A DNA stretch of 64,000 nucleotides from Escherichia coli (GTDB lineage Bacteria; Pseudomonadota; Gammaproteobacteria; Enterobacterales; Enterobacteriaceae). The DNA is taken from the NCBI RefSeq assembly GCF_003334255.1, contig NZ_QOWU01000004.1; one strand, written 5' to 3'. Positions 1,717 to 1,817 of this stretch are shown in pieces; position 1 is the stretch's first letter, and every line of letters begins with the position of its first letter. The notes under the pieces are model-generated. The model was given only the letters and a program-made list of their open reading frames with translations. It searched no databases and was not told where the DNA came from. Both the position numbers and the translations under genes were made by a program.

Positions 1717-1817
1717 TTGAATTTTACATCCCGTACGTTCCCCTCACCCTAACCCTCTCCCCAAAGGGGCGAGGGGACCGTTCAGTACGGAATTTAGCTT
1801 GACGGTGCTATCCAGCA

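Follow-up and report, generated by a model that had tools for sequence, protein, structure and literature searches.

Between the convergent genes frlR and yhfS of Escherichia coli lies a GC-rich inverted repeat, and the question it raises is whether it is a signal that serves one of its two neighbours or a sequence with a history of its own. The window (the whole stretch of DNA analysed, 64,000 nt) matches E. coli K-12 MG1655, with window position x corresponding to position x + 3,503,117 of NC_000913.3. The frlR-yhfS spacer measures 151 bp and contains a REP element and, 25 nt beyond it, the repeat considered here. An earlier note, made from the sequence alone, had described a 10-bp stem with one mismatch next to a REP, had stated that neither strand bears a T run, and had proposed that the yhfZ-yhfS transcript may end in a hairpin which binds a protein or stabilises the RNA. 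The stem was found as described, with nine of its ten pairs complementary, and the adjoining REP is real, both of its arms being complementary throughout. The features of the locus and its alleles among complete E. coli genomes are collected in Table 1.

Table 1. Features of the frlR-yhfS spacer, with window coordinates, and alleles of the locus in 5,426 E. coli genomes
Feature	Window position	Strand	Details
frlR CDS	935-1666	+	Transcript carries BoxC in the C-rich sense
REP (palindromic unit)	1672-1715		Arms 1685-1697 / 1703-1715, 13/13 complementary
Extended BoxC unit	~1724-1792		Flanks conserved in the family (15 type-A MG1655 copies aligned)
Stretch of 43 nt shared by two BoxC copies	1739-1781		Inferred crossover segment of the O157:H7-type junction
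BoxC / PIT / TMECO core, K-12 copy no. 15, type 'A mm'	1740-1775	-	Table 1 of PMC4666352
C block a (CCCTCACCC)	1741-1749	+	Complement of G block 3; alternative partner of the G block
C block b (CCCTCTCCC)	1753-1761	+	Complement of G block 2; 5′ arm of the stem
G block (GGGCGAGGG)	1767-1775	+	Complement of block 1 (CCCTCGCCC); 3′ arm of the stem
Hairpin of the earlier note	1753-1775	+	9/10 pairs, T1758·C1770 mismatch, AAA loop 1763-1765
yhfS CDS	1818-2903	-	Transcript carries BoxC in the G-rich sense
Rho termination region	1855 (NC_000913.3 3,504,972)	+	Antisense to yhfS; Supplementary file 2 of PMC7815308
Allele: K-12 type, frlR-REP-BoxC-yhfS			~2,861/5,426 genomes
Allele: yhfL joined to yhfS, without frlABCDR, REP and BoxC			1,924/5,426 genomes (~35%); homology resumes at the yhfS stop codon
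Allele: O157:H7 type, frlR-REP-BoxC followed by trpS, without yhfS-yhfZ			422/5,426 genomes
Allele: 52-bp deletion	1721-1772		91/5,426 genomes, e.g. strain 1190; GA/GA microhomology at its ends

Read on the + strand, positions 1740-1775 are made up of three blocks, CCCTCACCC-TAA-CCCTCTCCC-CAAAG-GGGCGAGGG. The - strand of the same interval is CCCTCGCCCCTTTGGGGAGAGGGTTAGGGTGAGGGG or, block by block, CCCTCGCCC-CTTTG-GGGAGAGGG-TTA-GGGTGAGGG-G. The hairpin of the earlier note involves the last two of the + strand blocks, with stem arms CCCTCTCCCC (1753-1762) and GGGGCGAGGG (1766-1775); the remaining block, CCCTCACCC, which lies within the interval that the note had delimited, was missed. Since this block competes for the same G block as its neighbour, two pairings compete with one another. 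The folding of the element was predicted with ViennaRNA, which deals with hairpins only. As RNA, the 23-nt hairpin gave a value of -15.6 kcal/mol (z = -3.1), equalled by one of 200 shuffled sequences; the sequence directly 3′ of it is ACCGTTCAG, and the stem-loop is thus stable and free of a U tract. For a 71-nt stretch comprising the hairpin and its flanks, the z-score of the fold on the + strand was -3.5. In the predicted fold of the - strand RNA, the outer two blocks pair through a G·U wobble.

The reverse complement of 1740-1775 proved identical, letter for letter over its 36 nt, to TMECO no. 15 of the published MG1655 catalogue, which is listed at NC_000913.3 3,504,892-3,504,857, in the antisense orientation, as type 'A mm' (Table 1 of Holder et al. 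2015, PMC4666352). The - strand of this interval fits the TMECO consensus given in the same paper, 5′-CCCTCNCCC N3-6 GGGNGAGGG N3 GGGNGAGGG[G/T/C/-]-3′. The same paper equates TMECO with BoxC (Bergler et al. 1992; Bachellier et al. 1999) and with the PIT elements (Hoyne et al. 2000; Hoyne & Maher 2002), and BoxC appears among the known E. coli stem-loop repeat families in an independent survey (PMC2267715). In MG1655, all 23 copies were recovered at their published coordinates. They occupy 18 loci, every one of them (18/18) intergenic; the frlR-yhfS copy lies between the stops at 1666 and 1818. Two of the 23 copies sit inside the cryptic prophage CP4-6 (NC_000913.3 282,101-282,136 and 289,246-289,279), where they occupy the yagA/yagE and xynR/argF spacers; published work describes the motif as not associated with phages.

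The similarity extends beyond the core to the flanks of the BoxC unit of roughly 56 nt. When the 15 type-A copies of MG1655 were aligned on their G-rich strand, the core was preceded by ...GnGCnCGnACGGTC and followed by GAACAnGCC...GCAC. In the copy studied here, the core is flanked by ...CCGTACTGAACGGTC on its 5′ side and by GAACGTACGG on its 3′ side, the outer part being a variant of the consensus; the inner flanks conserved in the family are, on the G-rich strand, ...ACGGTC (5′) and GAAC... (3′). As delimited by these alignments, the BoxC unit is a three-block core of ~36 nt bordered on either side by ~15-20 nt of conserved sequence, about 60-70 nt in all. The frlR-yhfS copy has an outer inverted repeat of its own, CCGTAC (1731-1736) / GTACGG (1785-1790); across the 15 aligned type-A copies, this outer stem was not a consistent set of pairs. 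RNAalifold predicted 13 pairs for the same 15 copies, with no compensatory change; since the core is invariant among the copies, covariation is uninformative as to a selected structure. The locus thus agrees with BoxC in all the sequence features compared, which establishes its membership of the family. Judged by its letters, the inverted repeat corresponds to the portion of a complete BoxC that can fold into a hairpin, and this BoxC is one of the 23 near-identical copies of K-12. BoxC belongs among the dispersed non-coding repeats and did not evolve as a signal for frlR or yhfS, and this copy is one already known and individually catalogued. For annotation purposes, the label should read "BoxC/PIT/TMECO repeat, copy 15", and not terminator or regulatory hairpin.

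The catalogued identity of the repeat and its recurrence across the genome had both escaped the earlier note, although its suggestion that the genome be searched for further copies of the motif was borne out on a massive scale. Besides the 23 copies of MG1655, a 77-nt query run against 5,426 complete E. coli genomes returned 88,447 places, of which 51 are plasmid-borne; a genome has from 1 to 33 of them, the median being 17. The note had also named an absence of genome-wide recurrence as a sign against its reading; recurrence is what was found. Within the 64-kb window itself, the exact 23-mer occurs once, where 0.00 occurrences are expected; no other BoxC copy was found in the window, and the GGGCGAGGG 9-mers at 5440 and 37975 are isolated. 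That the inverted repeat arose by chance in GC-rich intergenic DNA, an idea for which nothing speaks beyond the short length of the repeat, is refuted by the 23-mer expectation, by the fold z-scores (-3.1 to -3.5) and by the number of copies in MG1655, and its probability can be taken as negligible.

A search of positions 1500-2000 against Rfam with permissive thresholds found no family covering BoxC. A match to naRNA4, a REP-derived family, reached 31.7 bits, below the gathering score, and covered 1672-1731, not the BoxC core; the other matches in this interval, mir-9193 and Antizyme_FSE, were set aside as noise. An open reading frame of 51 aa with a TTG start (1647-1802, + strand) spans both the REP and BoxC and was taken as spurious. 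Open reading frames that run across repeats in this manner are a likely source of false 'hypothetical protein' calls.

Terminator-like sites were sought on both strands of 1740-1790, and none overlapped the element; the sole site of this kind that was found corresponds to the 3′ arm of the REP (1704-1719). PIT elements showed neither promoter nor terminator activity in the work of Hoyne & Maher 2002, as this is cited in PMC4666352. This BoxC copy is not an intrinsic terminator. The earlier note had reached the same view from the lack of a T run, and the scan of the two strands upheld it.

The RNA 3′ ends listed by Adams et al. 2021 (PMC7815308, Supplementary file 1) include none at 3,5048xx-3,5049xx; this absence is not decisive, given the weak expression of frl and yhf genes in the media of that study. 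The same Term-seq data do place 3′ ends at other BoxC copies. One, at 3,781,065(+) and labelled "primary lldD", lies 3 nt past the GGGG foot of BoxC no. 17; another, at 4,231,270(-), lies 3 nt past the hairpin of a degenerate BoxC copy; and a third, at 632,098(+), lies ~10 nt past the hairpin of a degenerate copy. All three of these ends, which follow BoxC hairpins at 3-10 nt, are in C-rich-sense RNA, that is, in the sense of the frlR strand at the present locus. In that same direction, the Rho termination region listed in Table 1 (Rho score 3.64, p = 1.3e-6) lies ~80 nt 3′ of the BoxC hairpin; its position is approximate, since it was called from 800-nt windows with low coverage (55/33 reads in untreated cells versus 66/144 with bicyclomycin). 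Rho-dependent transcripts are reported to end just past stable stem-loops that lack U tracts and that block PNPase and RNase II (Dar & Sorek 2018, PMC6061677).

The 3′ ends at other copies, together with the downstream Rho region, make it plausible that the hairpin is an exonuclease barrier of the kind formed by REPs. In frlR-sense RNA, the last two blocks would fold into the -15.6 kcal/mol hairpin without a U tract; Rho-dependent termination would take place ~80 nt downstream, and the hairpin would then stop 3′-to-5′ exonucleases as REPs do, leaving the 3′ end of the frl operon near window position 1779. BoxC is, on this analysis, probably a REP-like 3′ barrier for frl-operon RNA, serving frl rather than yhfS transcripts.

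The opposite assignment, that of the earlier note, is a hairpin specific to this locus which marks the 3′ end of the yhfZ-yhfS mRNA and either binds a protein or stabilises the transcript. The - strand RNA of 71 nt does have a stable predicted fold (-34.2 kcal/mol, z = -3.1), and one 3′ end in the G-rich sense was found at 3,959,467(-), 4 nt past the block1:block2 hairpin of copy no. 20, a type-B copy, and inside BoxC. However, five Term-seq records contain the C-rich-sense CCCTAACCCT, and for type-A copies none carries the full element in the G-rich sense (AGGGTTAGGG). In the sense of the yhfS transcript, the REP lies further 3′ and would be the first barrier met by exonucleases. In addition, yhfS is kept without REP or BoxC in 1,924 genomes, a repeat with 23 copies shows no bias towards particular gene functions, and no protein partner is known. 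A yhfS-specific hairpin therefore appears unlikely. Of the two functions that the earlier note had proposed, RNA stabilisation is plausible in itself, given the 3′ ends at three BoxC copies, but those ends are in the frlR-strand sense and not in that of yhfS; for a protein-binding hairpin, nothing was found that supports a binding site specific to the locus.

In the ilvC-ppiC spacer (NC_000913.3 ~3,959,458-3,959,531), the 3′ ends 3,959,499(-) and 3,959,531(+) bracket a hairpin, AAGGCCTTCTCC...GGAGAAGGCCTT. This hairpin is the ppiC terminator and directly adjoins BoxC no. 20.

The Rho region admits another interpretation, in which the element acts ahead of termination and not after it: the C-rich, G-poor frlR-sense RNA of 1721-1765 would be a rut site that loads Rho, and frl read-through would end inside the antisense of yhfS. 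These 45 nt contain 21 C and 2 G, the C/G ratio over 60 nt peaks at 2.7, and the Rho region at window position 1855 is ~90-130 nt downstream of the C-rich stretch. At the convergent BoxC loci of MG1655, a downstream Rho region was seen in 5 of 7 cases in the direction of the C-rich RNA and in 2 of 7 in that of the G-rich RNA, a difference that is suggestive but, in so small a sample, not significant, with distances ranging from 80 to ~1,350 nt and with expression as a confounder; the frlR-yhfS locus is included in the tally, and frlR is absent from the Rho regions of the G-rich direction. Half of the C tract, however, is sequestered in the hairpin, the reported lack of terminator activity of PIT elements also weighs against the proposal, and the rut sites described by Dar & Sorek (PMC6061677) lie 3′ of the protective hairpins instead of inside them. 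Loading of Rho by BoxC is, in our judgement, unlikely.

At the DNA level, the spacer is the joint of two gene blocks, each of which is present or absent depending on the genome (5,426 E. coli genomes; see the alleles in Table 1). A second BoxC, in the same orientation, abuts the stop codon of trpS in the yhfZ-trpS spacer of 1,525 genomes. Strain 2014C-3307 contains two direct BoxC copies 7,699 bp apart which flank yhfS-yhfZ and have 43 identical nt in common, and strains E2865 and 600468 likewise carry both copies. The junction of the O157:H7 type is composed of the left flank of copy 1, the shared 43 nt and the right flank of copy 2. When the right flank of the O157 junction was sought beside trpS in K-12 it was absent, two REPs being found there instead. 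We infer that the hybrid junction is the product to be expected from the recombination of two direct BoxC repeats. BoxC would then behave, as DNA, as a portable block of homology prone to form structures, and recombination between the present copy and the direct copy on the trpS side would generate an O157:H7-type junction devoid of the 7.7-kb yhfS-yhfZ cluster. The event at yhfS-yhfZ may have been a loss of the cluster, by deletion between two copies, or a gain, through recombination at a BoxC that inserted it. Most of the hybrid genomes sampled look like a single O157:H7-like lineage, so that one historical event may account for them.

The 52-bp deletion allele would be explained by slippage inside the element. 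It retains the GGGGACCGT... end of the element together with the conserved flank and, since a fragment of the element is kept, it represents a truncated element and not an empty site. More rearrangement has been reported at TMECO loci among E. coli strains than at control spacers, by a mechanism that is unclear (PMC4666352). The present locus, in which two direct copies flank yhfS-yhfZ (php), provides a concrete example of this reported "genomic instability" around BoxC. The consequences of BoxC that are most likely at this locus are incidental: it would supply a block of homology at which yhfS-yhfZ was lost or gained, and it is probably a 3′ barrier for frl RNA.

Some further observations were made at this locus. 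Just 3′ of yhfZ, positions 9346-9369 (aaaaaaaccgggtttccccggttt) contain an A-run, a CCGGG...CCCGG hairpin and a T-run; this site resembles a bidirectional intrinsic terminator and is kept in all three of the alleles seen for the yhfZ-trpS spacer. In O157:H7 strain TX 376-2, which is without yhfS-yhfZ, the annotation gives frlD as a pseudogene that has a stop codon inside it. In strain AST19, yhfS is annotated as frameshifted, and the place found by BLAST exceeds the 381-nt query by 44 bp; this excess suggests a small insertion or duplication inside yhfS, and the REP-BoxC spacer is identical to that of K-12.

A further reading is that BoxC is or was mobile, or the target of a recombinase, in the manner of MITEs or of REPs with a RAYT transposase, so that this copy would have come by transposition or site-specific recombination. 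In keeping with this, the yhfZ-trpS spacer (9228-9516) exists in three forms, with two REPs (K-12, ~9394-9485), with BoxC or with neither (strain THO-006), and the number of places varies from 1 to 33 across E. coli genomes. The same core was also found, among the matches listed, in at least 17 genomes of at least six phyla, often within longer repeat units that are specific to a lineage. The matches listed include an identical three-block core in Polaromonas, Geobacter, Pseudolabrys, Contendobacter, Xanthomonas and Stutzerimonas, as well as in Nitrospirae, Chloroflexales, Leptolyngbya and a Bacteroidaceae MAG; in several MAGs the core is embedded in longer conserved repeat units with shared flanks of at least 30 nt. 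Mobility of BoxC is nevertheless quite improbable. The MG1655 copies have no target-site duplication or terminal inverted repeat in common, and neither a transposase nor any other gene is associated with them. No clean empty site was found, the sole frl+ allele without BoxC being the deletion that keeps a fragment of the element. Finally, Holder et al. report no link to transposons, phages or plasmids (PMC4666352).

A different view of the rearrangements is that structure, and not homology, drives them: in vivo, the element would adopt a non-B DNA form (an intrastrand triplex, or H-DNA) which stalls replication or regulates DNA transactions. According to CD and NMR, a purine-motif triplex is formed by oligonucleotides of the sequence type of this copy (type A with one mismatch), and DNA polymerase is stopped in vitro by PIT elements (PMC4666352). 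The variable positions of the core are likewise constrained beyond the needs of a simple hairpin. Its three N positions show one of two combinations, (T,A,T) or (G,A,T), in 134 of the 140 non-E. coli copies among the matches listed, and in 20 of the 23 K-12 copies; the T/G change at the first N position is never compensated at the second and switches the perfect partner between block 2 and block 3. Against a role in the cell, the duplex wins when the complementary strand is present, in vivo DMS footprinting gave no protection, and no replication effect was seen in vivo (PMC4666352). Moreover, homology alone suffices to explain the O157-type junction, in which the exchange falls cleanly inside the 43 identical nt. 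A search of the post-2015 literature on TMECO and intrastrand triplexes found no newer functional study. A triplex acting in vivo at this locus has little probability.

A still broader idea is offered as a long shot: BoxC may not be inert but a REP-like functional module kept across many phyla by a trans-acting protein (a recombinase, a transposase or a structure-specific binder), its copies acting both as portable boundaries where accessory cassettes such as yhfS-yhfZ would be excised or inserted and as 3′ stabilisers of Rho-terminated mRNAs. If this were true, the (T,A,T)/(G,A,T) dimorphism would reflect recognition by that protein.

The explanation that we favour, and consider very likely, combines the identity of the repeat as BoxC, its probable use as homology in recombination and a probable REP-like barrier at the 3′ end of frl RNA. 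Its identity, its copy number, its potential to form structures and the alleles of the locus are established, the effects on DNA and on RNA being probable. What is new with respect to published work on BoxC is the allele series described for this locus, together with the hybrid junction between BoxC copies. The points on recombination and on 3′ ends are modest refinements of what is known of the family; as regards the latter, published 3′-end maps suggest that BoxC hairpins, like REPs, can define the 3′ ends of mRNAs.

When compared with known systems, the frlR-yhfS element shares with BoxC/PIT/TMECO the three blocks, the TTA second loop of type A, the one mismatched triplet ('mm'), the intergenic location and the conserved flanks, and no difference in sequence was found. 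With intrinsic terminators it has in common a GC-rich hairpin 3′ of two convergent genes; it differs from them in lacking a U run on either strand, and the reporter tests made with PIT elements showed no terminator activity. The three blocks, homopurine-homopyrimidine and mirror-like, recall triplex or H-DNA motifs, and as an isolated G-rich strand the element does form a triplex in vitro; in contrast to such motifs, the triplex has been seen neither in duplex DNA nor in vivo (PMC4666352). The 3′ stem-loops of Dar & Sorek are closer in kind, with a stable stem without a U tract, a downstream Rho region and 3′ ends at three other BoxC copies, the difference being that the known 3′ ends are those of other copies and none is recorded at the frlR-yhfS copy. 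Assignment of the element to REP/BIME itself was rejected, as it has no similarity to the adjacent REP and the naRNA4 matches miss its core. The two families are unrelated in sequence, BoxC having three blocks and REP two arms, and they differ in abundance (~23 copies versus several hundred). Unlike the case of REP, we know of no RAYT-type transposase for BoxC, nor of binding by IHF, gyrase or Pol I. The likeness between them lies in their form and in their probable effect: both are GC-rich, palindromic, intergenic, multicopy repeats located mostly 3′ of genes, and both give RNA hairpins without U tracts which stop 3′ exonucleases after Rho-dependent termination in the case of REP and would do the same in that of BoxC.
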